Source: Bacteroidota bacterium (GTDB taxonomy: Bacteria > Bacteroidota > Bacteroidia > Bacteroidales > PUMT01). Taken from it: a stretch of DNA of 64,000 nt. The stretch lies in NCBI GenBank assembly GCA_003554865.1, contig PWHJ01000221.1:6594-70593 (forward strand), read 5' to 3'. The position numbers and the translations under genes are program-made. This document shows, one piece after another, positions 30,513 through 61,970 of this stretch (position 1 is its first letter; each line of letters opens with the position of its first letter). The notes beneath the pieces are model-generated. The model had not been told where the DNA came from and did not search any database. It saw nothing but the letters and a program-made list of their open reading frames with translations.

Positions 30513-30524
30513 TTATAAAAGACT

Positions 30525-31266: not shown

Positions 31267-31986
31267 ATGATTAAAATAATTAATCTCCTGTTTTTCGCTT
31301 TAATGGTAGTTGTAAACTACCTGGCAAACGCCCTGCCGATAAACAACAAAACCACCGGAGAATTATCGGCCCAGTATGAAAACCTTTTTGTTCCCGCCGG
31401 TATTACATTCTCAATATGGGGAGTAATATACCTTCTGCTTTTGATCTTCTGTATAATCCAGTTCAGGGAAGAAAACAGGGAGGCTGTCGGCTCGATTGGT
31501 ATAACCTTTGCCATAACCTGCCTTTTAAACGCCGCATGGATATTTGCCTGGCATTATGAACAGCTGCCCCTTTCACTTTTGATAATGCTTGGTTTGCTGG
31601 CAGGACTTATTTTCATAAACCACACTTTGCGTGAAATACCTCCAGGCTGGATCAAAGCGGCGTTCGGTATTTACCTGGGCTGGATATGTATTGCCACAAT
31701 AGCAAATGTTACCGCCCTGCTTGTAAGCATCAACTGGGGAGGATGGGGTATATCCGGACAGGTGTGGACTATAATAATGATAGCTGCAGGCACAATTATT
31801 ATTGCCGCCACAGTTTACAGACTTGATAACCCTTTTACCGGACTGGCAGCAATATGGGCATTTACAGGCATAATAATCAAAAGGCAGCAAGATTATATCT
31901 CAATAGTTATTGCAGCAGCAATTGCCATAGCACTTACGGCTGTGGTGACGGGATTAATGTTTTACCGCAAACTCACCCCTGCCTGA
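31267..31986 (+). CDS. Polytopic Trp-rich membrane protein, possibly TspO/MBR-related
   Basis: NYLANALPINNKTTGELSAQYENLFVPAGITFSIWGVIY and repeated W-rich helices. The family call is from memory and is weak. Confidence 0.5.
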   Translation: MIKIINLLFFALMVVVNYLANALPINNKTTGELSAQYENLFVPAGITFSIWGVIYLLLLIFCIIQFREENREAVGSIGITFAITCLLNAAWIFAWHYEQLPLSLLIMLGLLAGLIFINHTLREIPPGWIKAAFGIYLGWICIATIANVTALLVSINWGGWGISGQVWTIIMIAAGTIIIAATVYRLDNPFTGLAAIWAFTGIIIKRQQDYISIVIAAAIAIALTAVVTGLMFYRKLTPA

Positions 31987-32006
31987 GTTAATTAAATTTT
32001 ACACAA

Positions 32007-32705
32007 ATGCATCGCAAAGACCTGTTTTTCAGCATTGCAGTAATAATCTTCTTTTTGCCCTTTTTTCTATGGAACCCACTGCTTGAAGCATACAAAGAAT
32101 TCAACCTTAACTACGGGATGGTAACCAGTTTTTTAAAGTTTGCTGTTTTGGCAACACTTGGAGAGGTGATCGGTTTACGCATTAAAACCGGCAATTACAA
32201 CAAGAGGGGGTTCGGCATTCTGCCCCGGGCAATTGTATGGGGTATTATCGGTCTGACCATACAGATGGCCTTCATAATTTTTTCAACCGGTACACCGATG
32301 TTCCTTGAATACCTCGGCGTGGAAGGAAGCACAGGTATGCTAGAGGAGTCTGGTTTGTCAGCGGCCAAAATACTGGTAGCTTTCTCCATCAGCCTTACGA
32401 TGAACATCATCTATGCACCGGTTATGATGACAACTCACAAAATAACTGACACACATATAGAGAATAATGGGGGGACGCTAAGGGGACTTTTCAGGCCCTT
32501 AAAGATGGGAGAGATCATGGCGGGCATAAACTGGAAAGTGCAGTGGGGTTTTGTTTTTAAAAAAACCATCCCCATCTTTTGGATCCCCGCCCATACAATA
32601 ACATTTTTACTTCCTCCGCAACACCGTGTGCTATTTGCAGCTCTTTTGAGCGTAATGCTGGGGGTGTTCCTTGCAGTGGCGGCAATTCTTGGCAAAATTA
32701 AGTAA
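32007..32705 (+). CDS. Hypothetical integral membrane protein
   Basis: Clean 232-aa ORF with about 6 hydrophobic helices. No recognised motif. Confidence 0.6.
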   Translation: MHRKDLFFSIAVIIFFLPFFLWNPLLEAYKEFNLNYGMVTSFLKFAVLATLGEVIGLRIKTGNYNKRGFGILPRAIVWGIIGLTIQMAFIIFSTGTPMFLEYLGVEGSTGMLEESGLSAAKILVAFSISLTMNIIYAPVMMTTHKITDTHIENNGGTLRGLFRPLKMGEIMAGINWKVQWGFVFKKTIPIFWIPAHTITFLLPPQHRVLFAALLSVMLGVFLAVAAILGKIK

Positions 32706-33088
32706 AAAGAGGCTGCATCTTTATAAACAGCCCCCTTTTGTCAATTTGCCGGCAATGTTACTTTTTCAGAATTTTCTTCAGTACCGTCTCCTCCTCCAGC
32801 TTTTTGGTGCAAAAGAACCAGTCTTTGCAATCCAGCTCCTCTTCCTTGCCCTCCATTCTGTTTTCAGCAGCACCGCAGGAAGATGCAGGAGGATACAGTG
32901 ATCATTATAAGCACTGAAAGAGAGGGTTGTGAGGATAAATACAGCTAATTGGAAGAAAAAATTAAAAATAATATTCAAAACATTAAACAAAATTGTTGAC
33001 ACGTAAAATAATTTTTCTTAACTTAATTTTAAAAAACCAAAAACACCCTATTATTTATGTTATTACCTCAAAAATATACAGCTTTAAT

Positions 33089-33661
33089 ATGAAAAAATTA
33101 TATAACCACAGTTTTTCTTTACATACATTTCTATGGGTAATATTTTTTCTGATTCTAATTTCATGCGGGCAAAAACTCTCTCCTGAGGAGGAAATGATTA
33201 GAGATGTCCTGAATAAAACGGTCAATATAAATCTTTTTGACAGCATCAGGAAGGAAGGTGAAGTATTTCATTTTACAGAATTCCGGGAAAAATACGATTA
33301 CATTTCCCTTGTTTACCTTGAAGATGGTTGCAGTCCTTGTTATCCGAGATTTGTTGACTGGCACGGGAAAATAAATTCGTTTCTTAAATATGAAGGCTAT
33401 ACTGTATTATTTGTTATCCGGGCAAACAACTACGTAAGGTTTCTTGAATTTGCATCCGAATATGGTGATGTTGAAGACCATCTTTATTTAGTAGTTGATC
33501 GGCACAATCGTTTTCTTGATAACAACAGGGATATCCCCCGTTCAATTTTAGACCGCTCTATCTTGATTGACAAAAAAAACAAGATCAAGCTAATTGGGCC
33601 TCCTTTGCAACTCCTGAAATGGGGGAACTTTTCCACAGAATTGTTGCCGGAACTGATTTGA
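33089..33661 (+). CDS. Thioredoxin-fold (TlpA/redoxin-like) lipoprotein with CSPC motif
   Basis: ATG at 33089 gives MKKLYNHSFSLHTFLWVIFFLILISCGQ (lipobox). YLEDGCSPCYPRFVDW carries a CxxC. LIDKKNKIKLIGPP resembles the C-terminal strand of TlpA-like proteins. The last 20 aa look out of frame (see findings). Confidence 0.6.
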   Translation: MKKLYNHSFSLHTFLWVIFFLILISCGQKLSPEEEMIRDVLNKTVNINLFDSIRKEGEVFHFTEFREKYDYISLVYLEDGCSPCYPRFVDWHGKINSFLKYEGYTVLFVIRANNYVRFLEFASEYGDVEDHLYLVVDRHNRFLDNNRDIPRSILDRSILIDKKNKIKLIGPPLQLLKWGNFSTELLPELI

Positions 33662-35983: not shown

Positions 35984-36054
35984 TAAACTGATTACCGGTT
36001 TACATCAAAACACCAGAAATAACTCCGTGTTAAACTGGTTGCCGGTTTACATCA
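35984..36054. repeat. 24-nt imperfect direct duplication TAAACTG(A/G)TT(A/G)CCGGTTTACATCA
   Basis: Copies at 35984-36007 and 36031-36054 (22/24 identical). The second overlaps the stop codon and last codons of the 36047-37633 gene. Confidence 0.8.
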
Positions 36055-37633
36055 CAATCGCATAAATTACTCCCAATACTCCCGTTATAGCGAGAGCATA
36101 AACAACCCTTGCTGGCATAATGCCATTATTTTCGGCAGTTTTACCAAAAATTCCGAAAACAAGGGGATGAACAAGAAATGGCATTGCAAAGACAAATGCA
36201 ATAAGTCCCGCAGCCTGCTCACCAAACATTCCCCCCTGAATAGCGGCAAAAAGGCCGAAATGAGAAATAGCGGATGAATTGGCCATTACAGAATCATTCA
36301 AGGGCATTCCCCCCAGGTTTAAAATGAAGAGTCCGCCAAAAACTGCCACCAATTGCCATCCAAGTGAAAATATCATCAACCCCCTGATCTCCCTGGCCTC
36401 TTCATTATTTGCCCGCCTTAAAACCTTGAGTGCCAAAAAAGTTAATATCACACCGGCTGAGACTACCGCAATGGTATGAGGAATAAGCAGTTTATCTGCA
36501 GTAGCACTGGCGGCCAGTATTGAAAATACGAATATGTGGCCTATAAAAGGGATGTTGATCATTATGGGGGCCCTGAATTGCGCTTCGGGACCGAGATCCC
36601 CTGCGGTACAGGCACCGGTTAAACCTGAGTGAGACAACGAACCGGCCATTCCCGGTGCAAGATTACGCATATGATTGGCCTTGCCTGCCAGGATCAGTAT
36701 TGCCAGTCCACCGAACATCCACAACAACTGTCCGAAAAATCCGAATGCCAAAACAGAATTCATTCCGGTAAGTGCAAAAGCCTCCCCGATCCTTGATCCG
36801 CCCACCATAAAGTTGGCAGCCAGGACGACAGGTATACCGGCAAAAAGCAAAGACCTAATGGTGGGACCGTATTTCCAGCGCGAAAAGATCATACCCATGC
36901 TAACGGCCAGAACCATAACAAAAAATATTTCGGGCAGGGCAATATAGGATTTAATCCACTCGGCCACAAGCCATGATAAAAGTAAAACGCCCAATATCAT
37001 TGCCGTCTCAAGGATACCCTTGCGTATATAGACAGGTTTATTGGTGATCTTGGCACGGTAGTCAATCAATATAATAGAACCCACCAGACCCAGATATCCG
37101 AGCAAAGGGTAAAATTCATCCAGAGGCTCGTTGTTGCTGTAACCGATAATGACACGCTTCATTGATTCTATTCCCACAAGCACAAAAAAGGAGCGTATCA
37201 GGAACATGAACTGCGTAAACTTGGTGCCAAGAAACATTTCCTCATCTGAGGGCACAACTATATCCTCCTTATCAATTTCCTGTTTTGCAAAAAGTTTCCT
37301 GATCTCTTGTCCCCCGACAAAAAAAGAGGCACTCAGTGCCGTTATTGTCATCTTGCTTGTAAAATCAATTATGGGGAATTCGCTCAAGCCCGGAGTTCCC
37401 AGCCCACTGGTCTGCAAAACATATCCCATTATCAACCCGAAAACCACAATTATAAGTATTGGCGAATAGCGGGTGCCTGCCACAAAAGTACGGGAGACAA
37501 GCACCATGGTAATAACAAGCAAAAAAGTAAGCCATAACTGGTTCAGGATATGGGCGTTTGCCATCTGTTCTGATAAGTGCTCCATTGAATTACATTTTTG
37601 ATTTTTTGAAAAACCTTCCTTTCCGCTCTTCAT
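36047..37633 (-). CDS. Large polytopic membrane protein, putative transporter of unrecognised family
   Basis: 528-aa ORF with more than 10 hydrophobic helices and a Gly-rich loop GSLSHSGLTGACTAGDLGPE. The start is uncertain (alternatives at MEHLSEQ and MANAHI). Confidence 0.7.
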   Translation of the reverse strand: MKSGKEGFSKNQKCNSMEHLSEQMANAHILNQLWLTFLLVITMVLVSRTFVAGTRYSPILIIVVFGLIMGYVLQTSGLGTPGLSEFPIIDFTSKMTITALSASFFVGGQEIRKLFAKQEIDKEDIVVPSDEEMFLGTKFTQFMFLIRSFFVLVGIESMKRVIIGYSNNEPLDEFYPLLGYLGLVGSIILIDYRAKITNKPVYIRKGILETAMILGVLLLSWLVAEWIKSYIALPEIFFVMVLAVSMGMIFSRWKYGPTIRSLLFAGIPVVLAANFMVGGSRIGEAFALTGMNSVLAFGFFGQLLWMFGGLAILILAGKANHMRNLAPGMAGSLSHSGLTGACTAGDLGPEAQFRAPIMINIPFIGHIFVFSILAASATADKLLIPHTIAVVSAGVILTFLALKVLRRANNEEAREIRGLMIFSLGWQLVAVFGGLFILNLGGMPLNDSVMANSSAISHFGLFAAIQGGMFGEQAAGLIAFVFAMPFLVHPLVFGIFGKTAENNGIMPARVVYALAITGVLGVIYAIVM

Positions 37634-42963: not shown

Positions 42964-42989
42964 CAAATTGTTAAAAATTTAACAATTTG
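42964..42989. promoter_or_regulatory. 26-bp palindrome CAAATTGTTAAA-AA-TTTAACAATTTG in the divergent lysC / ACT-protein spacer
   Basis: 12-bp perfect arms at 42964-42975 and 42978-42989. It ends 16 nt before the ATG at 43005 and lies 77 nt from the lysC start. Confidence 0.45.
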
Positions 42990-43004
42990 AATTATCATTG
43001 GAAA

Positions 43005-43667
43005 ATGACTGTTACCGAAGTAGTTGACAAGCTAATATCCCGTTCGCCATTTTTGGAAGAGGCAATTCACGACAACATTGTAAATGTTTCCTCCCTTGCG
43101 CGCAAATTAAAGCCCGAGGCAGAAAAAATCCTTAATAAACAGGTCAATACAAGTGCAATTGTCATGGCTATAAACAGGAGGCCTGCCGGCAGATATATAA
43201 AATTAAGCCATCAGATCGGGAAAATTTTGAAAAACCTGGGTGACATAACAGTTCGTTCCGGCTTAAGCGGACACAGTTTTGAAAATTCCCCCACCCTTGT
43301 CACATGTCAGCGCAACCTTATGGATGAGGCGGGTAAAAGGAAAAATACTTTTTTTGCCTTTTCGCAAGGTGTAACCGAAACAACATTAGTTATAAGCAAC
43401 ACACTCGATCATAAAACCAAGAGACTGTTTAAAGGGGAAAGAAAACTTTCATACAACCCCGGCCTTGGTTCTGTCACAATTCAACTTCCGGGAGAAAACA
43501 CAAAAATTTCAGGCATTTATTATTTTATACTCAAAAACCTTGCATGGGAAGGAATAAACATAAGAGAAATTATTTCGGCAACAAATGAGCTAAATATAGT
43601 GGTTGATGAAACAGACACGGAAAAGGCTTTCCCTGTAATACTTAACCTGAAAAGACCCCCAAGGTGA
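43005..43667 (+). CDS. Hypothetical protein with ACT-like C-terminal domain (possible amino-acid-sensing regulator)
   Basis: C-terminus GIYYFILKNLAWEGINIREIISATNELNIVVDETDTEKAF resembles the aspartate-kinase ACT fold. The N-terminus (VVDKLISRSPFLEEAIHDNIVNVSSLARKL) is HTH-like. ATG at 43005 is preferred to TTG at 42987. Confidence 0.5.
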   Translation: MTVTEVVDKLISRSPFLEEAIHDNIVNVSSLARKLKPEAEKILNKQVNTSAIVMAINRRPAGRYIKLSHQIGKILKNLGDITVRSGLSGHSFENSPTLVTCQRNLMDEAGKRKNTFFAFSQGVTETTLVISNTLDHKTKRLFKGERKLSYNPGLGSVTIQLPGENTKISGIYYFILKNLAWEGINIREIISATNELNIVVDETDTEKAFPVILNLKRPPR

Positions 43668-46561: not shown

Positions 46562-47815
46562 CTAAGAACCGGCGTTTCGAATCTTTATAGGCTGGCGTTT
46601 CATATAAGTCAGACTTCGCCAAACCCATTCAAAAGGTCCGTATCTGAAATATCTGAGCCATACATTGCTCAGCAAAACCTGTGCGGCGAATATAACAATC
46701 GTAAGAAGCACCCCCTGGAAAACATTAATCTCTCCAAACAGTCCAAAACCGTAAGGCAAAAAGAGTGTGGTGCAGATCAGCGAATGAAGAAGGTAGTTTG
46801 TAAGTGCCATGCGGCCAACAGGTGCCAGGTACCTGCCAATAATACTGATTTTGCCTTTATCATAAAGCAATACAATGGCAGAAACATAAAAAAGGCAAAG
46901 TAAAACTCCGCCCACTATGTGAAATGTGCTTGAAATGAACGTCCATATATCGGGTACAACCAATTCGGCTGTAAAATGTGACCATGTATATATTACATTG
47001 CTTAATATTCCACCTACAAGGCCCACCCACAAAGACTTTCGGAAAAAAGGCAGATTACTTCTGTAATCCTCGATTATACGTTTTCGCCCGCCCCAGACTC
47101 CTGCTATGAACATTGCCAGAACCATAGGATAAAAAAAGAAAATCCCCGGAAGCATAATAAAGTATTCCTGCAGCCGCAGCGAAACTATTTCGGAAAAGCT
47201 CCCCCGGCCGTAAATTTCATACGCCTTATCTATAAAAGAAAACAGAAACTGCTTCTCCTCTTTTATACTTGCTTCATACATTTCCTTAGACTCGGGGTGC
47301 ACTGAAGCCAATTCAGGTATAAGAACCGTAAAAACGGTAAAAACAATAGGAAGCAACAGGAAAAATGCAGACCATTTCAAAAGGGTGGTATCGCTTTTTC
47401 TCCTGAAAAGTATCAGAAGAAATCCGAAAAGAGCATAGAAAACGAGTATGTCGCCGGGCCACAAAAGCACCACATGCAAAATCCCAATCATCAAAAGTAT
47501 CAGCATACGTCGCCTGAAAACCGGAATTATGCTCCCGCCACCGGCAGTTCTTTTATTAATGAACATCCAGAAGCCGTAACCGAACAGAAAGGAAAACAAC
47601 ACATAAAACTTCCCCTCGAAAAAGAATTTTATGATAGCTTGCGAGCCAATATTCACAAAGGATTCCGCACCGGTATATCCTGCAAGCATAACGGTCATCG
47701 GCCTGTAGAAGATCTGCATATTTACCATAAGGATGCCGAAAATGGCAAGTCCCCTTAATATGTCAAGAAGGTCAATACGATAGGAGGTGGGAGCGGCAGA
47801 AATATTTGAATGCAT
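46562..47815 (-). CDS. DUF418/YeiB-like membrane protein
   Basis: RIDLLDILRGLAIFGILMVNM N-terminal signature, about 10 TM helices, C-terminal RYGPFEWVWRSLTY. Confidence 0.75.
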   Translation of the reverse strand: MHSNISAAPTSYRIDLLDILRGLAIFGILMVNMQIFYRPMTVMLAGYTGAESFVNIGSQAIIKFFFEGKFYVLFSFLFGYGFWMFINKRTAGGGSIIPVFRRRMLILLMIGILHVVLLWPGDILVFYALFGFLLILFRRKSDTTLLKWSAFFLLLPIVFTVFTVLIPELASVHPESKEMYEASIKEEKQFLFSFIDKAYEIYGRGSFSEIVSLRLQEYFIMLPGIFFFYPMVLAMFIAGVWGGRKRIIEDYRSNLPFFRKSLWVGLVGGILSNVIYTWSHFTAELVVPDIWTFISSTFHIVGGVLLCLFYVSAIVLLYDKGKISIIGRYLAPVGRMALTNYLLHSLICTTLFLPYGFGLFGEINVFQGVLLTIVIFAAQVLLSNVWLRYFRYGPFEWVWRSLTYMKRQPIKIRNAGS

Positions 47816-47907: not shown

Positions 47908-48870
47908 TCACTGTTTGTTAAAATCCGGGCGCGGGAGCAAGCCGGCCTCCTCGGCAATACCCGGTACACTTTTTTCACCTCCGATAGCCATCAGGTGTAC
48001 CCCATGGACACCTTCCATCTTTTTCAACTCAGCTATTTGCTCAAGTGCAATCTGTCTTCCTTCCGCCTTTTGATCTTCAGCCTCTTCCATCCTTTTTACT
48101 ATATCTTCGGTGAAAGATATCCCCGAGACGTTATCCTTCATATATTTTGCCATTTTTGCAGATTTCAGGGGGGTCACTCCGGCCAGGATATAAACTTTTT
48201 TATGAAGTCCCCTTTCCCTTACCTCCTCCATCCACCGGCTGAACCTCTCCATATTATATATAACCTGAGTCTGGATAAAATCGGCCCCTGCATTAATTTT
48301 CTTTTCCAGTCGCATAACCCTGAAATCCAGAGGTTCTGCAAAAGGATTCGCCGCGGCACCGATGAATATTTTAGGCTCCACGACAGGGCCTTTTTTGCCG
48401 TTCCTTATCATGTCACCGCATTCAAATTGCTGCTGCTCCCTCATTTTATAAAGCATATTGATAAGCTGCACCGAATCAATGTCAAAAACATTTTTAGCGG
48501 CAGGGTGATTGCCAAACGACTGATGGTCTCCGGAAAGGCATAATATATTCTTTATGCCGAGGGCAGCGGCACCCAGCACATCACTCTGGATAGCAAGCCT
48601 GTTCCTGTCGCGTGTGGTAATCTGCACAACCGGCTCAAGTCCCTGTTCAAGACAAATAACTCCCGAAGCTATAGAAGAGAGGCGTGCAATGGCAGTTTGA
48701 TTATCGGTAATATTTGCTGCATCAACATATCCTTTCAGGTAGTTTGCCTTTTCTAAAATATTATTCCTGTCAGCGCTTTTTGGAGGGCCCAGCTCACCTG
48801 TCAAAGCAAACTCCCCCGATTGCAAAACCTGTTCAAGATTACTGTTTGAGCTAGTCTTGTTTTTGTCCAT
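47908..48870 (-). CDS. metF: Methylenetetrahydrofolate reductase, short anaerobe-type MetF
   Basis: TIM-barrel MTHFR-like blocks (FALTGELGPPK, ANITDNQTAIARLSS, QITTRDRN, CLSGDH). Last gene of the hdr-mvhD-metV-metF string. Confidence 0.8.
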   Translation of the reverse strand: MDKNKTSSNSNLEQVLQSGEFALTGELGPPKSADRNNILEKANYLKGYVDAANITDNQTAIARLSSIASGVICLEQGLEPVVQITTRDRNRLAIQSDVLGAAALGIKNILCLSGDHQSFGNHPAAKNVFDIDSVQLINMLYKMREQQQFECGDMIRNGKKGPVVEPKIFIGAAANPFAEPLDFRVMRLEKKINAGADFIQTQVIYNMERFSRWMEEVRERGLHKKVYILAGVTPLKSAKMAKYMKDNVSGISFTEDIVKRMEEAEDQKAEGRQIALEQIAELKKMEGVHGVHLMAIGGEKSVPGIAEEAGLLPRPDFNKQ

Positions 48871-48897: not shown

Positions 48898-49593
48898 TTA
48901 ATTATTCTCCTTTTCCTCATCAAACATCATATCTTCCCTTGCAACCCTTCTGGGACCGCCGTCCCTGGCAGTCGACCAGTTTTTTGCGGGTTTATACTCC
49001 ATTAATTTATCAAGCTTGTTAAGGCGCTTGAACCGGTCGTATATCAACTGTCCGCCACATTCAGTATTTTCCGGGTCAATTTCACACATACCGTGAGAAG
49101 ACCCTCCACATGGTCCGTTCATTAAACTTTTGGCACACCTGGCAATCGGGCATATGCCTTCATATTCATCCAGCACACATTCACCGCAGCCTGCACAACG
49201 TTCGGACCACAAGCCCTGGGAAATGTTGGCCCCGAAAAATTTGGTGTTTACACCCGGTCTGACGATAACATCAGGGAAAAGCTCAACAATATACTGCACA
49301 CCAACCCCGCATCCCAATGAAAGTACCATTTCGGCCCGGTTTATTTTTTCTGTCGCATCCTCGTCAAAAAACTCCCTGTCGCATTGGCGCGTTAGTGTCA
49401 GCTCTTCAATTTCAATATTCCGGTTCTCCTGTCTGGCAGCCAATTTAAGTTGTTTCGAAAGCACACCTGCTTCATTTTCCCCGCCTGCCATACAAACGGT
49501 CATACAAGTACCGCATCCCATAACCAGGATATTATTGTAATCCTTAACAAAATCAAAAATTTGCTGAAAAGGTTTTTGTTCTGAAACAATCAT
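48898..49593 (-). CDS. metV: MetV-type protein (MTHFR C-terminal-like Zn/Fe-S domain)
   Basis: CPIARCAKSLMNGPCGG signature plus further Cys clusters (GCGTCMTVCMAGG, CAGCGECV). Lies 27 nt upstream of metF. Confidence 0.75.
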   Translation of the reverse strand: MIVSEQKPFQQIFDFVKDYNNILVMGCGTCMTVCMAGGENEAGVLSKQLKLAARQENRNIEIEELTLTRQCDREFFDEDATEKINRAEMVLSLGCGVGVQYIVELFPDVIVRPGVNTKFFGANISQGLWSERCAGCGECVLDEYEGICPIARCAKSLMNGPCGGSSHGMCEIDPENTECGGQLIYDRFKRLNKLDKLMEYKPAKNWSTARDGGPRRVAREDMMFDEEKENN

Positions 49594-49625: not shown

Positions 49626-50111
49626 TTATTTGCAGCATTGACTTTTATCCTTCTTCCCTTTTCCTTGACCTGTGTCCTGATCCGGAACCTCACCTTTATC
49701 TGTTTCTGCCTCCTTGCTACCGTCAAGCTGCTTTATCTTATCTGTAAACTCCTGTGCAGATCTAGCAAAGAGGGGGCCTTCCGATGCCGGTATATAGTAC
49801 ATTTCAAGCCTTTCGGGGTTTATTCCCACCTCCTGAAGCTTCTCTTTTGCAAGAGTGACTCTTTTCACCGCCCTTGCATTTCCTTCAAGAAAATGGCAAC
49901 TACCGATCTCACAGCCCGCCACCATCACCCCGTCAGCTTCATCCACAAAAGCCTGCAGCAACATATTTACATGTACTTTACCGGTACACGGCAACCGGAC
50001 AATGTGAATATTAGTGGGATACTGCTGCCGCATTGTTCCGGCCAGATCGGCCGCCGTGAATGCACAATAATGACAACAAAAGGCTATTATTTTAGGTTCT
50101 CTTTCTTTCAT
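49626..50111 (-). CDS. mvhD: MvhD/FlpD-like (methyl-viologen-reducing hydrogenase delta subunit family) protein
   Basis: KIIAFCCHYCAFTAADLAG...VRLPCTGKV...GCEIGSCHF are the family's conserved Cys blocks. It has a Lys/Asp-rich C-terminal tail ending CCK. Confidence 0.85.
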   Translation of the reverse strand: MKEREPKIIAFCCHYCAFTAADLAGTMRQQYPTNIHIVRLPCTGKVHVNMLLQAFVDEADGVMVAGCEIGSCHFLEGNARAVKRVTLAKEKLQEVGINPERLEMYYIPASEGPLFARSAQEFTDKIKQLDGSKEAETDKGEVPDQDTGQGKGKKDKSQCCK

Positions 50112-50224: not shown

Positions 50225-53200
50225 TCATGAGTTAATTTCAATAATACTCTTTTCATTTCTTTTCAAGATATTCTTAACCAAGCTGCATTCCTGCTCATCA
50301 GTAAATGTGTGAAGTTGTATTGCACTGGCAGGGCATGCCGCTGCACAGTTTCCGCATCCCTGACACTTGGCCGCATCAACTTCTGCTTTTCCGTTTTTAT
50401 TAATAAACGGGGCATTAAACAAGCATTCTCTGATACATGTAAGACATGAGGCACACTTATCTTCATTTATCACGGAAACAACACCACCCACCTCAAGTGA
50501 GTCTTTCGAGAGGACCGTTACCGCCCTGCCCGCTGCCGCTACACCCTGCATTATGTTTTCCTCGGTATTTTTGGGAGAATGTGCCATTCCGCATATAAAT
50601 ACACCTTCATTGGCGAAATCAACCGGACGAAGTTTAATATGAGCCTCCATGAAATTGCCGTGCTCATCCAGGGGAAGTTTCATCAATTCGGCAAGATGGC
50701 CGTTCGACTCTTTAGTTGCCTCTATACCCGCACTTAGTACCAGCTGATCACATTCAAGTGTAACATAATCGTTAAGCACGGTGTCTTTAACTTTTATAGT
50801 GAGCTTGTTTTTATTTTCCTCAACTTCCGGATATTCCTCATCGGGGAAATGGATAAACTTAACACCCAGCTCCCTTGCCCTGCGGTAGAAGATCTCACGT
50901 ATGGTATATGTTCTTATATCACGGTAAAGAATATATACTTTGGAATCCGGGTCCTTTTCCTTTATACTTATTGCATTTTTAATAGCCTCACTGCAACAGA
51001 CCCGGGAACAATAATTATGCTCATCGTCACGGCTTCCCACACACTGGATCATTGCAACCGTTCCGAATTTTTCTTTTTTATCGATCTCAAATTCAAACCC
51101 CCGTTGAGTAATAACATTTTTATTTTTACCGTAAAGAAAGTTTTCAGTTTCATACTCCTTTGCACCGGTTGCAATTAATATAACCCCGTGATCAATTTCC
51201 GTTTTATTATCATCGAGAGTGGTTGTAAAATTCCCAATAGAGCCGTTAACAGACTTGATATTAGTGTTCAAGTGGATATCGATCAGCTCTTCATCATTAA
51301 CTTCACGTATCTTATTTTTCAGAAATTCCTGCCAGTCCTCTCCGTTGATCTCCTTGTTCAAATAAATCATGTTGCCGCCCAGCTCACTCTCCTTTTCAAC
51401 AAGATGAACCTTAAACCCCTGTCTTGCCAGAGAAAGCGAGGCCGTCATACCTGTTATACCTCCTCCTACAACCAGGGCATTTTTATTGACAGATATTGTT
51501 TTAAGCTGTAAAGGCTCCAGATGCATTGCTTTCCCGACACTTCCCCTTACCAGTGCTTTGGCTTTTTCCGTTGCCAGCTCCGGCTCCTTCTGGTGCACCC
51601 AGGAGCACTGTTCCCTGATATCGGTCATTTCAAAAAGATACTTGTTCAGTCCACCCTCACGCAAAGTCTCCTGAAACAGACCTTCATGAGTACGCGGAGT
51701 ACAGGATGCAACCACTACCCTGTTAAGGTTATACTCATCGATCAGCTCTTTCATCCTTTTTTGGGTATCCTGGGAGCAGTTGTATATTGTATGCTCGGCA
51801 TAAACGACACCCGGCAAATTTTTGGCATATTCGGCAACCGCTTCAACATCCACAACGGATGCTATGTTTATGCCGCAATGACAAATAAATACCCCAATGC
51901 GTGCTTCAGTATCCGCCACTTTCTTTTCCACCGGATATCTTTTTGCCGTTATTTCGGTGTTACGAACTTCTTTGAGAACTTCGCTGCTCAATGCAGCCGC
52001 CGAACTTCCCTGAGTTACAGCTTCGGGAATATCGCTCGGTCCGTTTCCGGCACCGCACAAATAAATACCCCTGCGGGTTGACATAAGCGGCTTAAGCGAC
52101 TCCTCAAGGAAAAATCCAAACCTGTTCTGCTCAATACCGAGAATTTCGCTGATCTTCCTGTTGGCCGGATTGGCAAGCAAGCCGACCGAAAGTACCACCA
52201 TGTCGAATTCCATTTCCTTATAGATGCCGTCCTCAATAAAACTAAGATTCAAACCCCTTGTCACAGGATTCTCTTTTACCGAAGAAATCTGACTGCGCAC
52301 AAACCTTACACCCGAATCATGCCTTGCCTGCTTATAAAAACTCTCAAAGCCCTTTCCGAAAGCTCTGATGTCTATATAAAAAATATAAGGTTGAACTTCA
52401 GGATCATGATCTTTGGCGATCATAGCCTCTTTAAGAGCATACATGCAACATACTGAAGAACAGTAGTCACTGCCCGTGGGGGTAACATCTCTCGATCCCA
52501 CACATTGGATCCAGGCAATCTTTTTAGGCGGCTTGGCGTCAGACGGGCGCGTTACATGGCCCTCATACGGTCCGGAAGCACTCAGAATCCGCTCAAACTG
52601 TATACTGGTTACAACATTGGGATATATGCCAAAGCCGTATTCCGGCTTCCTCTTTGCATCATAGGGAACGAATCCTCCTGTGGATATTACAGTTCCCACA
52701 TTGATCTGCAATGTCTCATCCTGCTGATTGTGTAAAACACCTTCGGCCTTGCATATGCGAACACATTCCATACATTCGGCACAGCTTGCACATTGGAGGC
52801 ATCTTTTAGCTTCATTTACAGCTTGCTCTTCTGTAAATGTACTTTCAATCTCATCAAAATTACCGCTTCTGCTTCCGGCTTCTGCTATAGAAGGGCTGGT
52901 ACGTTTAACCGGTTCTTTATCCACCCCTTCGGGCATCCCGGCAAAATCGCCGTCAATGTCAACCGGTTCTCTCTCTGTTTTCAGATCCTCCTTATTCAGG
53001 AAACGGTCAATGGATTCCGAAGCACGGTGCCCCATTGCTACCGACTCCACCAGTGAAGAAGGGCCGATCACCATGTCTCCTCCGGCAAACACACCCTCTT
53101 CGGAACATTCCAGGGTCAAAGGATCGGTACAAATCCATCCTTTATCGCTTTTAACAGAAGGATCAAGTCCACAGAGATCACATTCCTGTCCGGTTGCAGG

Positions 53201-54685
53201 AATCACAGTATCTGCCTCCACCACAGTTGTCTGATCAGGATCGGTCTGCAGTGAACGCTCCCCTTTGCTGTTATATACAGTCTCACATTTTTCAACTTCC
53301 AGTCCGCTAACCTTTCCATCCTCAAATACTATCTTTTTAGGGGACCATGAATTTTTTATCTCTACCCCTTCTTCAAGAGCCTCTTCGATCTCCCATGAAT
53401 GGGCAGGCATCTCCTCTTTGGTTCGGCGGTAAACAATTGTCACCTCAGAACCCATACGGATAGCCGAGCGTGCGACATCAACCGCAACGTTACCGCCACC
53501 TATAACGGCAACCTTTGAACCTGCCGAAGGTTTTTTTCCTTCACTTATTTCTCTGAGAAAAGATAGCCCATATATTACACCCTCGCCACCGGCAGTGTCA
53601 AGGGGTATCTCTTTGGCCTTTTGGGCCCCGAGCGAAACAAAAACCGCCTTGTAGCCCTGCTGTTTGAGATCCTTAATTGAAAAGTCCACCCCCAGTGTCT
53701 GTCCTTTTTTAACCTCGATACCATCATCAACCATCAATTGAATCTCATAATCGAGATAATCTTTAGGCAACCTGTAATCGGGTATACCTGTGCGCATCAT
53801 GCCCCCCAGCTTATCGCCCGCCTCAAAAAGAGTCACTTTATATCCTTTTTTCACAAGATCATGAGCACAGGTAAGACCTGCAGGGCCACCACCAATCACC
53901 GCAACTTTTTCTTCAGGGGCGGCGGAATTCTCACTTTGTAATTTATTTTCCCTTTCAGGAAGACCTCCCTCTTCGAGGAGTCTCTTTTCATAATCCGCTG
54001 CAAAACGCTTAAGGTTACGCACAGATACCGGTTGGTCAATTTCATTGCGATTGCAATTCTCCTCGCACGGATGATGGCATATCCTGCCGCAAACCCCGGC
54101 AAAAGGCATCCTTTCCCTGATAAGATCAACCGCCTCCAGGAATTTACCCTTTGCAATCAGAGCCGTATAGCCCTGCACATTGACACCTGCCGGGCAGGTG
54201 TTTTTACACGGGGCTGCAGGTGTGGATTTGTCTATGGTATAAACATTCGGGATTGCCTGGGGATATAACCGGTAAATCGCTTTGCGGTTTGAGAGCTGTC
54301 CATTAAATTCGTCTATTCTTACAACAGGGCACTCCAGCTCACACTCCCCGCAGCCGTTACATTTGTCTTCATCAACATAACGGGCCTTTTTATTTATGGT
54401 AGCTGTAAAATTCCCTGCTTCTCCCTCTATTTTATCCAGCTCTGCATAGGAGATAATCTCTATATTAAGATGGCGGCCTGTTTCCACCAGCTTGGGAGAT
54501 ATCATACACATGGCGCAATCGTTGGTGGGGAAGGTTTTATCGAGTTTCGCCATGTTACCACCGATAGCAGGCTCTTTTTCCAGCAGGTAAACTTTATACC
54601 CCATTTCAGCGCTGTCAATGGCAGCCTGCATTCCTGCAATACCGCCTCCTATAACCAATACTGAACCTGTTTGCTTATTATGCAT
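50225..54685 (-). CDS. hdrA: Giant HdrA-like flavo-iron-sulfur protein: HdrA (interrupted by an NfnB/GltD-like NAD(P)H module) fused to a second complete HdrA
   Basis: VIGGGIAGMQAA...GGNMAKLDKTFPTNDCAMC; CPAGVNVQGY...GRICHHPCEENC; VAVIGGGPAGL; VAVIGGGNVAVD; IAWIQCVGSRD; RIGVFICHCGINI...REQCSWVH; LVVGGGITGM; VAMIQCVGSRDD; terminal CASCLTCIRECL / CQGCGNCAAACP. Confidence 0.9.
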   Translation of the reverse strand: MHNKQTGSVLVIGGGIAGMQAAIDSAEMGYKVYLLEKEPAIGGNMAKLDKTFPTNDCAMCMISPKLVETGRHLNIEIISYAELDKIEGEAGNFTATINKKARYVDEDKCNGCGECELECPVVRIDEFNGQLSNRKAIYRLYPQAIPNVYTIDKSTPAAPCKNTCPAGVNVQGYTALIAKGKFLEAVDLIRERMPFAGVCGRICHHPCEENCNRNEIDQPVSVRNLKRFAADYEKRLLEEGGLPERENKLQSENSAAPEEKVAVIGGGPAGLTCAHDLVKKGYKVTLFEAGDKLGGMMRTGIPDYRLPKDYLDYEIQLMVDDGIEVKKGQTLGVDFSIKDLKQQGYKAVFVSLGAQKAKEIPLDTAGGEGVIYGLSFLREISEGKKPSAGSKVAVIGGGNVAVDVARSAIRMGSEVTIVYRRTKEEMPAHSWEIEEALEEGVEIKNSWSPKKIVFEDGKVSGLEVEKCETVYNSKGERSLQTDPDQTTVVEADTVIPATGQECDLCGLDPSVKSDKGWICTDPLTLECSEEGVFAGGDMVIGPSSLVESVAMGHRASESIDRFLNKEDLKTEREPVDIDGDFAGMPEGVDKEPVKRTSPSIAEAGSRSGNFDEIESTFTEEQAVNEAKRCLQCASCAECMECVRICKAEGVLHNQQDETLQINVGTVISTGGFVPYDAKRKPEYGFGIYPNVVTSIQFERILSASGPYEGHVTRPSDAKPPKKIAWIQCVGSRDVTPTGSDYCSSVCCMYALKEAMIAKDHDPEVQPYIFYIDIRAFGKGFESFYKQARHDSGVRFVRSQISSVKENPVTRGLNLSFIEDGIYKEMEFDMVVLSVGLLANPANRKISEILGIEQNRFGFFLEESLKPLMSTRRGIYLCGAGNGPSDIPEAVTQGSSAAALSSEVLKEVRNTEITAKRYPVEKKVADTEARIGVFICHCGINIASVVDVEAVAEYAKNLPGVVYAEHTIYNCSQDTQKRMKELIDEYNLNRVVVASCTPRTHEGLFQETLREGGLNKYLFEMTDIREQCSWVHQKEPELATEKAKALVRGSVGKAMHLEPLQLKTISVNKNALVVGGGITGMTASLSLARQGFKVHLVEKESELGGNMIYLNKEINGEDWQEFLKNKIREVNDEELIDIHLNTNIKSVNGSIGNFTTTLDDNKTEIDHGVILIATGAKEYETENFLYGKNKNVITQRGFEFEIDKKEKFGTVAMIQCVGSRDDEHNYCSRVCCSEAIKNAISIKEKDPDSKVYILYRDIRTYTIREIFYRRARELGVKFIHFPDEEYPEVEENKNKLTIKVKDTVLNDYVTLECDQLVLSAGIEATKESNGHLAELMKLPLDEHGNFMEAHIKLRPVDFANEGVFICGMAHSPKNTEENIMQGVAAAGRAVTVLSKDSLEVGGVVSVINEDKCASCLTCIRECLFNAPFINKNGKAEVDAAKCQGCGNCAAACPASAIQLHTFTDEQECSLVKNILKRNEKSIIEINS

Positions 54686-54723: not shown

Positions 54724-55611
54724 TTAACTATTTTTCAATGAACGGGTTTTATAGATTGACCCCAAAGGGACAAAGTTTTTCTTAAATCCCAGATCAGCGG
54801 GACTGCAGCCAAATGCCACTCCCATCAACTGGGTAATAAAAGCCACCGGCAACGGATATTCAACTGGATACTTTTTCCGGATTGAATCTTGCTTTGTATC
54901 GAGATTGGTCTGACACATAGGACAGGATACCGCAACACAGTCCACCCCCCTTAGTCCGGCATCCTTCAACACTTTGCCCACAAGCTTTTCGGCAATTGTA
55001 TTTACGGTAACAAACAAACTCGCCCCACAGCAATCCGTTTTATATGACCAGTCTACCACCTCACCACCCAGAGCTTTTACAATTTCATCCATGCTCATGG
55101 GGTATTCCCGGGTATCGAAAGCTTTTTCTATGGGAACCCGTGTATTCAGGCATCCGTAATAACAGGCAACCTTAAGCCCGTTAAGGGGATTTTTTACATA
55201 TTTTGAAATATGATCAAGGCCCACAACATTCACGAAAAAGTCGAGTATATTCCTGACCTTGACCTGGCCCTTATAGGGAAGATCACTTTCATTGTTCAGT
55301 TTCTCCAGCAGCTTTTCATCATTATTAAGCTCATATTCCGCCCCTACCAGCCTGAAATAACAGGATGCACAAGGGACAACCAACTCCCTGATCCCTTGCT
55401 TTTCTGCCAGCGCCAGATTTTTATGGCTCAACATCAGGTTAAGATGCTGATCTACAGACTTTACAGATGTTGCCCCGCAACAGTTCCAGTCAGCTATCTC
55501 CCTGAAAGGTATCTGCAGAACACCGAAAACGGTCTTGATACTCTGCAAATAGTGAGATGAGCTGGTTTCAAGGCTACAGCCCGGATATATAGCAATTTCA
55601 TCTTTGTTCAT
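54724..55611 (-). CDS. hdrB: HdrB-like subunit (two CCG cysteine-rich domains)
   Basis: YPGCS...DWNCCGATS and YYGC...KTDCCGASL are the duplicated CCG-domain signatures. Confidence 0.85.
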   Translation of the reverse strand: MNKDEIAIYPGCSLETSSSHYLQSIKTVFGVLQIPFREIADWNCCGATSVKSVDQHLNLMLSHKNLALAEKQGIRELVVPCASCYFRLVGAEYELNNDEKLLEKLNNESDLPYKGQVKVRNILDFFVNVVGLDHISKYVKNPLNGLKVACYYGCLNTRVPIEKAFDTREYPMSMDEIVKALGGEVVDWSYKTDCCGASLFVTVNTIAEKLVGKVLKDAGLRGVDCVAVSCPMCQTNLDTKQDSIRKKYPVEYPLPVAFITQLMGVAFGCSPADLGFKKNFVPLGSIYKTRSLKNS

Positions 55612-55659: not shown

Positions 55660-56184
55660 TCAGTCCTTTGGTGAAATTTGTTTTATCCAGTTGCGAAAAC
55701 CTTTTACCGCCTTTGGTGGCGTAAAATGCAGCTTGTTCTTCATCAGCATTTTAGGTCCCAACATCGCATTTTTGAAAGGTTTGCCCAGCCGCAAATTATA
55801 CTCAATCATAATCCTGAACTCATGCACCTTGCCCCTTCTTAAAATATCATCCGTAAAAGTCTTGTGGAACTTATAAATATCATTCCTTTTTGGTTTAAGT
55901 CCACGCTCCAAAGCCATTTGCTTCAGCCGGGTCATTATATTGGGGATCTCGATATCGTTGGGGCATTTTACAGCACAAGCATAACAACTTGCGCAAATCC
56001 AGGGAGTTTCAGTTTTGAATACTTTTTCCTCCATTCCAAGGGAAGTAAGATGAATAACTATATGCGGATACACATCCATCTCCTCCACCACCGGGCAACC
56101 GGCTGAACACTTTCCACACTGGTAACAAAGCGATGTCTCACTGTACAACTCTTTTTTCGTCTTCTCCAGTTCAGGTGTCTCCAT
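55660..56184 (-). CDS. hdrC: HdrC-like subunit (2x[4Fe-4S])
   Basis: CYQCGKCSAGCP and CASCYACAVKCP. 174 aa. First gene of the operon. Confidence 0.85.
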   Translation of the reverse strand: METPELEKTKKELYSETSLCYQCGKCSAGCPVVEEMDVYPHIVIHLTSLGMEEKVFKTETPWICASCYACAVKCPNDIEIPNIMTRLKQMALERGLKPKRNDIYKFHKTFTDDILRRGKVHEFRIMIEYNLRLGKPFKNAMLGPKMLMKNKLHFTPPKAVKGFRNWIKQISPKD

Positions 56185-57440: not shown

Positions 57441-58169
57441 TCATTCCCAGTGAGGAAAGTATTGTATGTTTATCCTAACAGGATATGCATTTGCCGCAAT
57501 TTCCTCAAGGCAATCAAGCCAGATACTGACGGCCTCCTCATCTACAGCCGTTTCGGCTCCTTCAAGCATCAGCTGCTGAGCCCTTTTCATAAGATCAGCC
57601 CCCTCCTGTACCCTTCCTGATTTAATCAACCCTTCAGCTCTTTTTATCATATCCTGCACATCTTCAGTCTCACCAACACCTCCCATCTTTTTATGGTATT
57701 TGTCATAAATCAGCTCATCCACCGAAACCAGATTTCCCTGATCATCCTCTTTCTGAAGAAAGAAATAATTATTATAAGGGGTGTACCTCCTTTCGGTTTC
57801 ATCAAATTTTTCCTGACTTATATGACCCAGGGTCATCAATCCCCTGATCTCATTTAAAACCCGGTTAACAGCCTTGCTGCGACCAGACCTGTAGTGAATA
57901 TAGACACCATCCGACTCGGGCATTCGGGCATAATACCGGAAAAAAGTTCTCTTACCCTGTTCGCCAACATCATCTTCCCTGTTAGGAGAGCCATTCTCCT
58001 TTACATAAAAGGCCTTAACCTCATCATATGAGTCATTAATTAAAAAAGCCATCTCGCTGACCGGACTGAAAGGAACTGCACCGGGGTAGACCGATGGTTT
58101 TCGCTGAGCATAACTTCCCGCTGCTAAAAAAGCCAGCAAAACCACTAAAATTAAACATTTGACCTTCAT
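57441..58169 (-). CDS. Hypothetical secreted protein
   Basis: ATG at 58169 gives MKVKCLILVVLLAFLAAGSYAQ (signal peptide). No recognised domain. Confidence 0.6.
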   Translation of the reverse strand: MKVKCLILVVLLAFLAAGSYAQRKPSVYPGAVPFSPVSEMAFLINDSYDEVKAFYVKENGSPNREDDVGEQGKRTFFRYYARMPESDGVYIHYRSGRSKAVNRVLNEIRGLMTLGHISQEKFDETERRYTPYNNYFFLQKEDDQGNLVSVDELIYDKYHKKMGGVGETEDVQDMIKRAEGLIKSGRVQEGADLMKRAQQLMLEGAETAVDEEAVSIWLDCLEEIAANAYPVRINIQYFPHWE

Positions 58170-58178
58170 AAGTGCAAA

Positions 58179-58186
58179 CAAATTTA
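58179..58186 (-). promoter_or_regulatory. -7 box TAAATTTG just upstream of the secreted-protein gene
   Basis: The minus strand reads TAAATTTG. It ends only about 10 nt from ATG 58169, so it would imply a very short leader. Confidence 0.3.
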
Positions 58187-60356: not shown

Positions 60357-61970
60357 TTAATCAACAAAAGAACTGATGGCATTCCAGTTGAGGCTACTCC
60401 AGAGATCATCGAGCATATTAACCCTTCTTTCGTTGTAGAACATTCCCCCTTCCGACCTGTAGCGCGCATCGGTCTCTTCCCACCACTCAACTGACAACAG
60501 CAGTATGGAGGAAGGGGAAGTAAAAGAGTCAAAAAAAGCCGGATTTATAGATAAAAGAGACCTTGCCCCTTCGGTTCCGGGATCGACAAGACCAGAAGCC
60601 CTTTCCGCATGGAAATCCAGTGCAACTATATGCCTGTGGGGGCCAAGTGGATGCCAGGGAGGAAGCTCAAAACCGTATGCCGGTGACCGGCGTTCAGATG
60701 CAGACATAGCATTCAACTCGGCCTGAAGCATTTCAAGCTTGCGGCCGGTATCTGAAAGAAAAAGAAAGTGTGGGACCTCCAGCTCTTCGCCAAGCTTTTC
60801 AAGGTTGTCCCAATTGCGCCCGCTGATAGCTGCATCAGCCTGATTCCAAATATCATCTATTGTCAAAAGCGCCTCAATCAGGTTTCTTTGATGCTCCTCA
60901 AACTCCGGGCGAAGCTCTGCTGCAGCCTCCAGCTGTGCTTCAAGGTTTTCATCGGCACTCTCGAGAATTTCCCTGTGACGCTTTTCTGCTTCTTCAGGGT
61001 CAAACCCCTTCATCATTTCAAACATTTTCTCAGCATCCTCCAGAGTCTTTTGGTGTCTTGCAATAATTGCCTCCTCATCAAAGACTTTTTGAATCTTTTC
61101 AAAATCACTGCGCATTTTTTCAATCTGCTCTCTGGTATACTCAGTCTCTCTTGCAGCATTAACCCCTGCCAGAAAATTCTCTAACTCACCGCGTGCCTTT
61201 TCTTTCAGTGCAAGAATCCATCTTTGCCGGCTTACCGGCTCCCAAAACGGGTGCCCCCCCGTAGTAAAGATAGTTGCAACAGTGGGTTGGGCAAGTCCAA
61301 AAGTGGGACGCACAACGGAACGAAGAAAGGGTTCAACTTCTGAACCCCATAAAGGGAAAAAGCTGTATGAAGGAAATTTTTGATCGTAACCCACCGGATG
61401 AGCTGATCGGCAATAAAGCTGCTGGCCTCCCCTCTCCTCTATCAAAGGTGGCAATATATATATCCCGCCTTTTGAATCATTCAGGACAGGTTCTCCAAGC
61501 AAACTGTAGGGATCATTTATCCTCACCCTCACCCCGGCCGTTACATCCGAAGAAACATAAGGAAACCGCATCGAAAGCCTCAGGTTTGCCACCGCCGGAC
61601 CTTCTGAGTCTTCCGGTAAAGAGAGGGGCGGGAACAAATCTCCCCTTGGTGATATTGCAACCCCAACCGGGGGGTTCAGTGTGCCTGCATTTTTGAATAC
61701 TTCAAGTATATCCTCCATTTTCAGTTTTAGCTCCTCATGGCCCTGAACAGGGCCTACAGAGCCTCTGTCAAGCCAGCTCAGGGGCTGCCATCCGTCGCGG
61801 GAAGCAGGTGTGCTAACAGAAAACCGCCCGGCAAGCATCAGAGCTGCTAAAACCAGAAGCAATGCCTTTAGAGGCAGAGGAAACAAAAAAAAGTTACAGC
61901 AGATGCCATTATAATTTCCTTTAATGGAAAACTTTTTTTTAAAAAAGTTTTTGTTGATTTTTTTAAGCAT
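60357..61970 (-). CDS. Hypothetical exported protein with central coiled-coil region
   Basis: N-terminal hydrophobic anchor (LKALLLVLAALMLAG) and a long Glu/Lys-rich helical middle (REQIEKMRSDFEKIQKVFDEEAIIARHQKTLEDAEKMFEMMKG...). No recognised family. Confidence 0.6.
   Translation of the reverse strand: MLKKINKNFFKKKFSIKGNYNGICCNFFLFPLPLKALLLVLAALMLAGRFSVSTPASRDGWQPLSWLDRGSVGPVQGHEELKLKMEDILEVFKNAGTLNPPVGVAISPRGDLFPPLSLPEDSEGPAVANLRLSMRFPYVSSDVTAGVRVRINDPYSLLGEPVLNDSKGGIYILPPLIEERGGQQLYCRSAHPVGYDQKFPSYSFFPLWGSEVEPFLRSVVRPTFGLAQPTVATIFTTGGHPFWEPVSRQRWILALKEKARGELENFLAGVNAARETEYTREQIEKMRSDFEKIQKVFDEEAIIARHQKTLEDAEKMFEMMKGFDPEEAEKRHREILESADENLEAQLEAAAELRPEFEEHQRNLIEALLTIDDIWNQADAAISGRNWDNLEKLGEELEVPHFLFLSDTGRKLEMLQAELNAMSASERRSPAYGFELPPWHPLGPHRHIVALDFHAERASGLVDPGTEGARSLLSINPAFFDSFTSPSSILLLSVEWWEETDARYRSEGGMFYNERRVNMLDDLWSSLNWNAISSFVD

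Follow-up and report, generated by a model that had tools for sequence, protein, structure and literature searches.

Mock and co-workers reportedly described, in 2014, the MetFV-HdrABC-MvhD complex of Moorella thermoacetica, the organism in which the enzyme type was first studied, as a methylene-tetrahydrofolate (methylene-H4F) reductase. In acetogens and in organisms that oxidise acetate, Hdr-type reductases of this kind are candidates for a step of energy coupling. We have analyzed a stretch of 64,000 nucleotides from a Bacteroidota bacterium of the order Bacteroidales (contig PWHJ01000221.1; the whole stretch is referred to below as the window) that carries a six-gene cassette, hdrC-hdrB-hdrA-mvhD-metV-metF, in which hdrA codes for a single chain of 1486 amino acids. 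We consider it probable (about 0.85) that the product of this gene is the large HdrA (HdrL) subunit of an Hdr-type methylene-H4F reductase, HdrCBA-MvhD-MetVF, of the M. thermoacetica type. An earlier inspection of the letters alone (the sequence-only reading) had left it open whether the tandem architecture has a precedent. It does: the large HdrA has been published and sampled biochemically (PMC9430772, PMC9012536, PMC2702500, PMC5947623) and is very common, with homologues in many phyla, and the window gene is an ordinary member of its family. The only new aspect is the Bacteroidota host.

The closest described counterpart is the HdrA of M. thermoacetica (Moth_1194, YP_430051), a protein of 1487 amino acids and 162.8 kDa encoded in the gene cluster hdrCBA-mvhD-metVF (PMC9430772). 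Its N-terminal part contains extra ferredoxin and thioredoxin-reductase-like domains, split by a GltD domain that binds [4Fe-4S], flavin adenine dinucleotide (FAD) and NAD(P)H, and residues 922-1487 resemble methanogen HdrA without the inserted ferredoxin domain. Two Glu/Lys pairs (E696/K750 and E1204/K1246) and eight predicted clusters have been reported, together with an NADH:benzyl-viologen activity of 190 U/mg for the recombinant HdrA alone (PMC9430772). With reduced benzyl viologen as the donor, methylene-H4F is reduced by the Moorella complex, which also reduces benzyl viologen with NADH, and bifurcation to ferredoxin or flavodoxin has been proposed for it, not demonstrated (PMC5861303).

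Related proteins have been described in other lineages. The fusion of HdrA with glutamate synthase, followed by mvhD, was named HdrL in 2009 (PMC2702500) and has been found in the proteomes of Syntrophobacter (PMC5947623). In the methanogen HdrA dimer, Cys197 of one chain completes the N-terminal cluster of the other, and fused HdrA units showing complementary loss of Cys197 and of the N-terminal domain have been described, the Moorella MetFV enzyme included (PMC9012536).

Domain anatomy of the large HdrA

The gene was delimited by its open reading frame, Pfam, NCBIfam, its relatives and the alignment to solved HdrA chains:

50225..54685, minus strand, large HdrA (HdrL-type) gene

From 54685 to 50225 on the minus strand there is a single unbroken reading frame with an ATG start, 1486 codons and a stop. 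This length, and all fourteen motifs that the sequence-only reading had quoted, were confirmed in the translation, which holds VIGGGIAGMQAA, GGNMAKLDKTFPTNDCAMC, CNGCGECELECP, CPAGVNVQGY, GRICHHPCEENC, VAVIGGGPAGL, VAVIGGGNVAVD, GVFAGGD, CLQCASCAECMECV, IAWIQCVGSRD, YCSSVCC, RIGVFICHCGINI, VVASCTPRTHE and REQCSWVH. The similarity matches of the product are far above chance expectation. The solved methanogen HdrA chains (8rvu, 5odc, 7bkb) align with it in four pieces, with E-values of about 1e-173 to 1e-177:

amino acids 9-154, aligned to residues 154-299 of 8rvu_a
amino acids 635-861, aligned to residues 301-527 of 8rvu_a (293-520 of 5odc_A for this region)
amino acids 920-1079, aligned to residues 4-163 of 8rvu_a
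amino acids 1295-1471, aligned to residues 476-650 of 8rvu_a

The NCBIfam models for HdrA likewise match in four or five separate stretches, and the canonical ones remain below their curated cut-offs (NF041778, 748 vs. 1400; NF041891, 706 vs. 1300; NF040770, 986 vs. 1100). Together with Pfam, these matches support the four-part order that had been read from the letters, and the chain can be divided as follows (all on the minus strand):

amino acids 1-154, 54224..54685, minus strand, unit 1, first part of a thioredoxin-reductase-like FAD domain with GGGIAG (aligned to 8rvu_a 154-299)
amino acids 155-634, 52784..54223, minus strand, inserted GltD/NfnB/StnC-like module (Pfam, NF009410, PDB matches)
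amino acids 635-905, 51971..52783, minus strand, unit 1, second ferredoxin Cys motif and rest of the FAD domain (aligned to 8rvu_a and 5odc_A)
amino acids 926-1064, 51494..51910, minus strand, unit 2, N-terminal Fe-S domain (amino acids 920-1079 align to HdrA 4-163)
amino acids 1065-1400, 50486..51493, minus strand, unit 2, FAD domain with GGGITG (alignment of unit 1 with unit 2, sequence reading)
amino acids 1401-1486, 50228..50485, minus strand, unit 2, C-terminal 2x[4Fe-4S] ferredoxin domain (Pfam Fer4 at amino acids 1405-1457; aligned up to HdrA 650)

The first part of unit 1 carries Cys60, which by alignment offset corresponds to Cys197 of methanogen HdrA; 10 relatives show the LDKTFPTNDC.MC motif without variation. 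It also carries the inserted ferredoxin domain's first CxxCxxCxxxCP motif (C109, C112, C115, C119). Beyond the inserted module follow the second CxxCxxCxxxC motif of the same ferredoxin domain (C635, C638, C641, C645), a [4Fe-4S] site belonging to the FAD domain itself (C728, C742, C746, C747) and the pair E698/K752, invariant in the alignment of relatives and corresponding by alignment offset to E356/K409 of 5odc. The N-terminal Fe-S and C-terminal ferredoxin domains of the solved HdrA chains are absent from unit 1 (amino acids 1-154 plus 635-905) in the alignment.

Unit 2 (amino acids 926-1486) has both of them. In the N-terminal one C935, C937, C970, C995 and C1027 are invariant among the aligned relatives, and the ferredoxin domain at the C-terminus contains the cysteines of two clusters (C1411, C1414, C1417, C1421 and C1441, C1444, C1447, C1451). 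The FAD domain between them has its own [4Fe-4S] site (C1215, C1226, C1230, C1231), and E1198/K1236 align with E698/K752 of unit 1, K1236 being retained in 8 of 10 relatives. The alignments and the reading of the sequence gave neither an inserted ferredoxin domain nor an LDKTFPTNDCxMC or Cys197-type cysteine in unit 2; there is no CxxCxxC motif between amino acids 1080 and 1214, and GNFTTTLDDNKTEIDHGVILIATG stands at the position of the ferredoxin insert of unit 1. The sequence-only reading had taken this part for a second, complete HdrA lacking the LDKTFPTNDC motif. A second unit without that motif is indeed present, but complete it is not, the inserted ferredoxin domain being missing. Since the Cys197-type cysteine and the inserted ferredoxin domain occur only in unit 1, and the N- and C-terminal Fe-S domains only in unit 2, the two units are complementary halves and not duplicates, i.e., an asymmetric “dimer” or heterodimer built into one chain. 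Counting motifs, the protein would have FAD-type GxGxxG sites in three places, a single NAD(P)H site and at most nine [4Fe-4S] sites. The PDB copy searched contained no chain with the large-HdrA architecture.

The module inserted in unit 1 is an NAD(P)H/FAD module of the GltD/NfnB type, as had been proposed. Pfam places Fer4_20 at amino acids 158-234 and Pyr_redox_2 at 260-552, and NF009410 (NCBIfam, GltD-like NAD(P)-binding protein) matches amino acids 156-666 with 546 bits against a cut-off of 516; with the equivalog models of gltA, GltD and similar proteins, the large HdrA stays under the cut-offs. Structures of the NfnI large subunit, NfnB, dihydropyrimidine dehydrogenase and GltD match the insert with E-values of 1e-44 to 1e-66 (8e-66 for the NfnI large subunit, 5jca_L), and the GltD-like modules of 9bov_A, 9n5u_A and 8oh5_C are better matches (1e-93 to 1e-112; 6e-112 for 9bov_A and 2e-93 for 8oh5_C). 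For solved chains of the NfnB type the range is 1e-64 to 1e-112. Eight cysteines (C160, C164, C199, C203, C207, C211, C629, C632) would by motif bind two [4Fe-4S] clusters. The Rossmann motifs are GGGPAG for FAD, at about amino acids 265-270, and GGGNVA for NAD(P)H, at about 396-401, the latter followed by VYRRT.

The module splits the inserted ferredoxin domain of unit 1 exactly between its two CxxCxxCxxxC motifs. It lies inside the ferredoxin domain because its flanks align to HdrA residues 299 and 301, which are contiguous there. The sequence-only reading, right about the identity of this part, had ended it too early, since it runs to about amino acid 634 and not to 565, and interrupts the ferredoxin domain and not an arbitrary point of the chain. 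Amino acids 576-634 (52784-52960, minus strand) are the counterpart of the free N-terminus of NfnB (RCLQCP, residues 15-46 of 5jca_L), here found at the C-terminal end of the module. Compared with NfnB, the module is thus circularly permuted, and the alignments to 8oh5_C and 9bov_A give the same order.

The nucleotide site has a recognisable signature. VTIVYRRTKEEMPA follows the second Rossmann strand and contains YRR(T), a signature shared with StnC and with the large subunit of NfnI, the YRR being amino acids 419-421 (53423-53431 of the window, minus strand). In Rossmann folds generally a YRR signature points to NADPH, and an acidic residue (the Glu of C-L-E) at the same positions suggests NADH. 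Among 75 loci of the genome scan described below, YRR was found in 47 and the Glu type (C/S-L-E) in 27, and both types occur beside metVF. The whole Bacteroidales clade is of the YRR type (all of the relatives P0001-P0027 in which the motif matched). The YRR motif suggests that the nucleotide used in the host organism may be NADPH and not NADH. The idea that the YRR site might be peculiar to the Bacteroidota clade was rejected, YRR being the majority state among the 75 loci and occurring both with and without adjacent metVF. The split between NADPH-type and Glu-type sites could guide the choice of homologues for biochemistry and cryo-electron microscopy.

Measured against the described proteins, the likeness to Moorella HdrA is the closest. 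The chains are of 1486 and 1487 amino acids, both have, by the published description, a split extra flavin/ferredoxin part followed by an HdrA unit without inserted ferredoxin domain, the C-terminal unit spans about 920-1486 here and 922-1487 there, the Glu/Lys pairs fall at E698/K752 and E1198/K1236 (E696/K750 and E1204/K1246 in Moorella), and in both proteins one unit has the Cys197-type cysteine and the other the N-terminal domain. Moorella belongs to the Bacillota, the window host to the Bacteroidota. With methanogen HdrA of the MvhAGD-HdrABC complex (5odc, 8rvu, 7bkb), all four HdrA domains, the Fe-S ligands and the flavin-site residues are shared; however, that protein is a symmetric homodimer of chains of about 650 amino acids, whereas the window protein is one asymmetric chain in which each accessory domain occurs once, and no hydrogenase genes are present. 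ANME-1 HdrA9, HdrA10 and HdrA11 have an NfnB-like insertion of about 500 amino acids within the inserted ferredoxin domain, and the fused HdrA3/HdrA4 show complementary loss of Cys197 and of the N-terminal domain (PMC9012536). As described, insertion and fusion are found in separate ANME-1 paralogues, whereas the window protein unites both; in HdrA3/4, moreover, the order is opposite to that seen here, since it is the N-terminal unit that bears the N-terminal domain, and in no ANME-1 genome analyzed in PMC9012536 was MetF clustered with HdrA. Finally, NfnB or the NfnI large subunit, StnC and GltD (5jca_L, 4ylf_B, 8oh5_C, 9bov_A, 9n5u_A, 6s6s_G; E-values of 1e-44 to 1e-112) share with the inserted module the two [4Fe-4S] sites, the FAD and NAD(P)H Rossmann folds with YRR(T), and GVFAGGD. 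The module differs from them in being internal to HdrA and not a free subunit, without a partner of the NfnA type, and from NfnB also in the segment with the RCLQC ligands, which stands at its C-terminal end as in 8oh5_C and 9bov_A.

Gene cluster, relatives and integrity of the gene

The large hdrA belongs to a cassette of six genes that follow one another on the minus strand, separated by 27-113 nucleotides, in which it is accompanied by:

55660..56184, minus strand, hdrC-like, 174 amino acids, two [4Fe-4S] motifs (Pfam Fer4_8 and Fer4_17; NCBIfam CoB_CoM_SS_C, E 1.9e-17, under the curated cut-off)
54724..55611, minus strand, hdrB-like, 295 amino acids, two CCG cysteine-rich domains (Pfam CCG in two stretches, E 2.6e-23; CoB_CoM_SS_B, E 2.6e-48, under the cut-off)
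49626..50111, minus strand, mvhD, 161 amino acids, [2Fe-2S] electron-transfer protein (Pfam FlpD, E 3.8e-46)
48898..49593, minus strand, metV, 231 amino acids, Fe-S subunit of MetVF (Pfam DUF5981, “methylene-tetrahydrofolate reductase C terminal”, E 1.5e-31)
47908..48870, minus strand, metF, 320 amino acids, methylenetetrahydrofolate reductase (Pfam MTHFR, E 4.4e-39)

The order is that of the Moorella cluster hdrCBA-mvhD-metVF, and the cassette contains no nfnA-like or gltB-like gene. The HdrL of Desulfobacterium autotrophicum and Syntrophobacter fumaroxidans is similar in being a large soluble HdrA/glutamate-synthase fusion that has an NAD(P)H site, and in having mvhD as the next gene (PMC2702500, PMC5947623). 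It differs in that some versions contain selenocysteine and one a predicted fumarate-reductase region, whereas the Cys197-type residue of the window protein is a plain cysteine, and in being often located beside dsr or fdh-like genes and not metVF.

A protein search listed 120 relatives, nearly all of which cover at least 97% of the query and measure 1449-1575 amino acids; this does not hold for two partial sequences and for fourteen archaeal variants of about 1650 amino acids. The relatives named in this list come from Bacteroidales (about 70% identity), Fibrobacteria, Latescibacterota, Verrucomicrobiota, Dehalococcoidia/Chloroflexota and Spirochaetota. Three of the variants of about 1650 amino acids (P0076-P0089) are labelled Thermoplasmata/Thermoplasmatota; with 75-77% query coverage and extra Fe-S domains (PF25160, PF13484), this variant looks like a further archaeal elaboration of the architecture.

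We also carried out a genome scan with one genome per species, which gave at least 600 pattern matches, and examined the best 80 loci. In these 80 loci, all from different species, the matches extend to both ends of the protein. They belong to Bacteroidota (77% identity), Planctomycetota, Desulfobacterota and related groups, Bacillota, Chloroflexota, Acidobacteriota, Armatimonadota, Thermotogae, Spirochaetes, Gemmatimonadota and Asgard archaea. The Bacillota relatives have 44-48% identity (three of them, the cultured Desulfotruncus arcticus, L026, and L029 and L040, are full-length at 44-47%), and the homologues of Desulfobacteraceae and Syntrophobacterales are full-length at 45-48%. The gene mvhD is next to the large hdrA in most of the 80 loci, and metV and/or metF are on the same stretch in about half. 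In six loci (L004, L009, L046, L047, L070, L080) the tblastn match spans about 6.3-6.6 kb, as against 4.4 kb, which suggests an adjacent second HdrA-like gene or a larger fusion. The six-gene cassette recurs with other flanking genes in the Bacteroidota relatives L001, L081 and L082; in two further Bacteroidota genomes its neighbors are unrelated genes. The cassette is well conserved in a clade of Bacteroidota/Bacteroidales genomes and travels as a self-contained six-gene unit. A literature search, largely at the level of titles and abstracts, found no paper that seemed to treat this cassette in Bacteroidota, and in passages of PMC6085437 the Bacteroidetes are mentioned only for other bifurcating enzymes.

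The unusual length and mosaic make-up of the gene were the sole reasons to suspect an assembly or frameshift artefact fusing separate hdrA-like and gltD-like genes, and we found no support for this idea, the probability of which we regard as negligible. GC content and skews are level across the gene and its neighbors. Records at both NCBI and JGI contain the identical protein, and a separate ENA assembly carries a copy with 1485 of the 1486 residues identical. This near-identical copy comes from an independent assembly and therefore excludes a chimera. The co-linear, full-length relatives in the protein list and the 80 loci, each of another species and matched up to both ends of the protein, speak against an artefact as well, and so does the insertion point, exactly between the two Cys motifs of one ferredoxin domain. 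The concern about a chimera voiced in the sequence-only reading is thus, in practice, settled in favor of a single gene.

Proposed electron path and rival explanations

For an enzyme of this composition we infer the following path. NAD(P)H would transfer a hydride to the inserted module's FAD, from which electrons would pass singly via the two [4Fe-4S] clusters of the insert and then the split ferredoxin domain to the N-domain cluster of unit 2, probably completed by Cys60, and from there to an HdrA flavin. At this point the path would divide. One branch would lead via the cluster of the flavin domain to HdrC/HdrB and MetV/MetF, where methylene-H4F would be reduced to methyl-H4F, and the other, through the ferredoxin domain at the C-terminus and then MvhD, to an acceptor of low potential, probably ferredoxin. 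The process would be a flavin-based bifurcation, or a confurcation if the enzyme were to run in reverse, and the ferredoxin so reduced could serve the Rnf complex encoded in the same window. The entry of NAD(P)H through a module built into a tandem HdrA, near mvhD, metV and metF, had been anticipated from the letters alone and is essentially right, the Moorella counterpart oxidizing NADH on its own (PMC9430772).

Several points weigh against a reductase of the Moorella type. The Moorella locus is absent from the best 80 of at least 600 pattern matches, and the equivalence therefore rests on cluster synteny and on what has been published about the Moorella protein. The Moorella enzyme was assayed with NADH, whereas the YRR signature here points to NADPH. 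No further Wood-Ljungdahl genes were found within the 64-kb window, neither near the cassette nor elsewhere, which bears on the role and the direction of the enzyme. Even in Moorella, bifurcation and the second acceptor are unproven (PMC9430772, PMC5861303), and the related complex of Sporomusa ovata is only loosely associated, partly membrane-bound, and did not oxidize added NADH in an H2:methylene-tetrahydrofolate oxidoreductase assay (PMC9430772).

The serious rival, although we consider it unlikely, is a plain non-bifurcating NAD(P)H:methylene-H4F oxidoreductase, in which the flavins and clusters of HdrA would act as a wire or as a link to the membrane and its quinones, with no acceptor of the ferredoxin type. 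NAD(P)H has a redox potential of about -320 mV. Electron transfer from it to methylene-H4F is exergonic alone, the E0' of the methylene-H4F/methyl-H4F couple being -200 mV (PMC5861303). For no Hdr-type methylene-H4F reductase has bifurcation been demonstrated or a second acceptor identified (PMC9430772, PMC5861303), and the partly membrane-bound S. ovata complex has been proposed to use reduced quinones (PMC9430772). Against such a linear enzyme, both flavin domains retain the Glu/Lys pair that, in what PMC9430772 relays of Appel et al. (2021), marks bifurcating HdrA flavins. Furthermore, HdrB, HdrC and MvhD are conserved in many phyla, as are some nine Fe-S sites and three sites for flavin, which is hard to justify for a simple wire because small NADH-dependent MetF enzymes exist.

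A minor rival, in our view very unlikely, is that HdrA, HdrBC and MvhD act on a disulfide or on a DsrC-like thiol acceptor and that MetVF is a mere neighbor. In its favor, metVF was not seen beside the large hdrA in about half of the 80 loci, and HdrB does retain both CCG domains, i.e., the disulfide-reducing site of methanogens. The HdrL of sulfate reducers, located beside dsr or fdh-like genes, has moreover been linked to DsrC (PMC2702500, PMC5947623). However, no dsr genes are present in the window, the six-gene cassette is tight and moves whole between genomic contexts in the window and in the Bacteroidota relatives, and in pull-downs from S. ovata MetF and MetV contact HdrA and HdrB (PMC9430772). 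These points favor a methylene-H4F reductase over a thiol-linked enzyme.

A more speculative possibility, rather improbable in our estimation, is that the Bacteroidota complex is NADPH-linked, as its YRR site would have it, and works outside the classical acetogenic Wood-Ljungdahl pathway, for example in C1/folate metabolism, where it could take up or supply reducing power in a ferredoxin-coupled manner, with the ferredoxin turned over by Rnf. If true, it would mean an unrecognised energy-conserving role of methylene-H4F reduction, or of methyl-H4F oxidation, in fermentative Bacteroidota.

Surroundings of the cassette in the window

The rest of the window consists of housekeeping genes and an rnf cluster. 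The latter, a complete rnfBCDGEA set coding for an ion-pumping ferredoxin:NAD+ oxidoreductase, is located at 26106-31097 on the plus strand, about 20 kb from the hdr-met cassette, and its product would be a natural consumer or producer of the ferredoxin handled by the hdr-met complex. A gene for a DUF418 membrane protein (46562-47815, minus strand) begins 92 nucleotides after metF. It is probably unrelated to the cassette, because no such gene flanks it in L081 and L082. The scan of 46.4-57.4 kb for promoters and terminators gave fewer sites than shuffled sequence, and the promoter type scanned may not be that of the host; Bacteroidota promoters differ from it.

Seven open reading frames of 222-537 amino acids had no Pfam match at E<=1e-6, three of them consecutive and directly downstream of rnf. 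They are found at:

31267-33661, plus strand
36047-37633, minus strand
42987-43667, plus strand
57441-58181, minus strand
60357-61970, minus strand

A gene for an Fe/Mn superoxide dismutase (8128-8703, plus strand) is also present, amid redox enzymes of the anaerobe type such as Hdr and Rnf.

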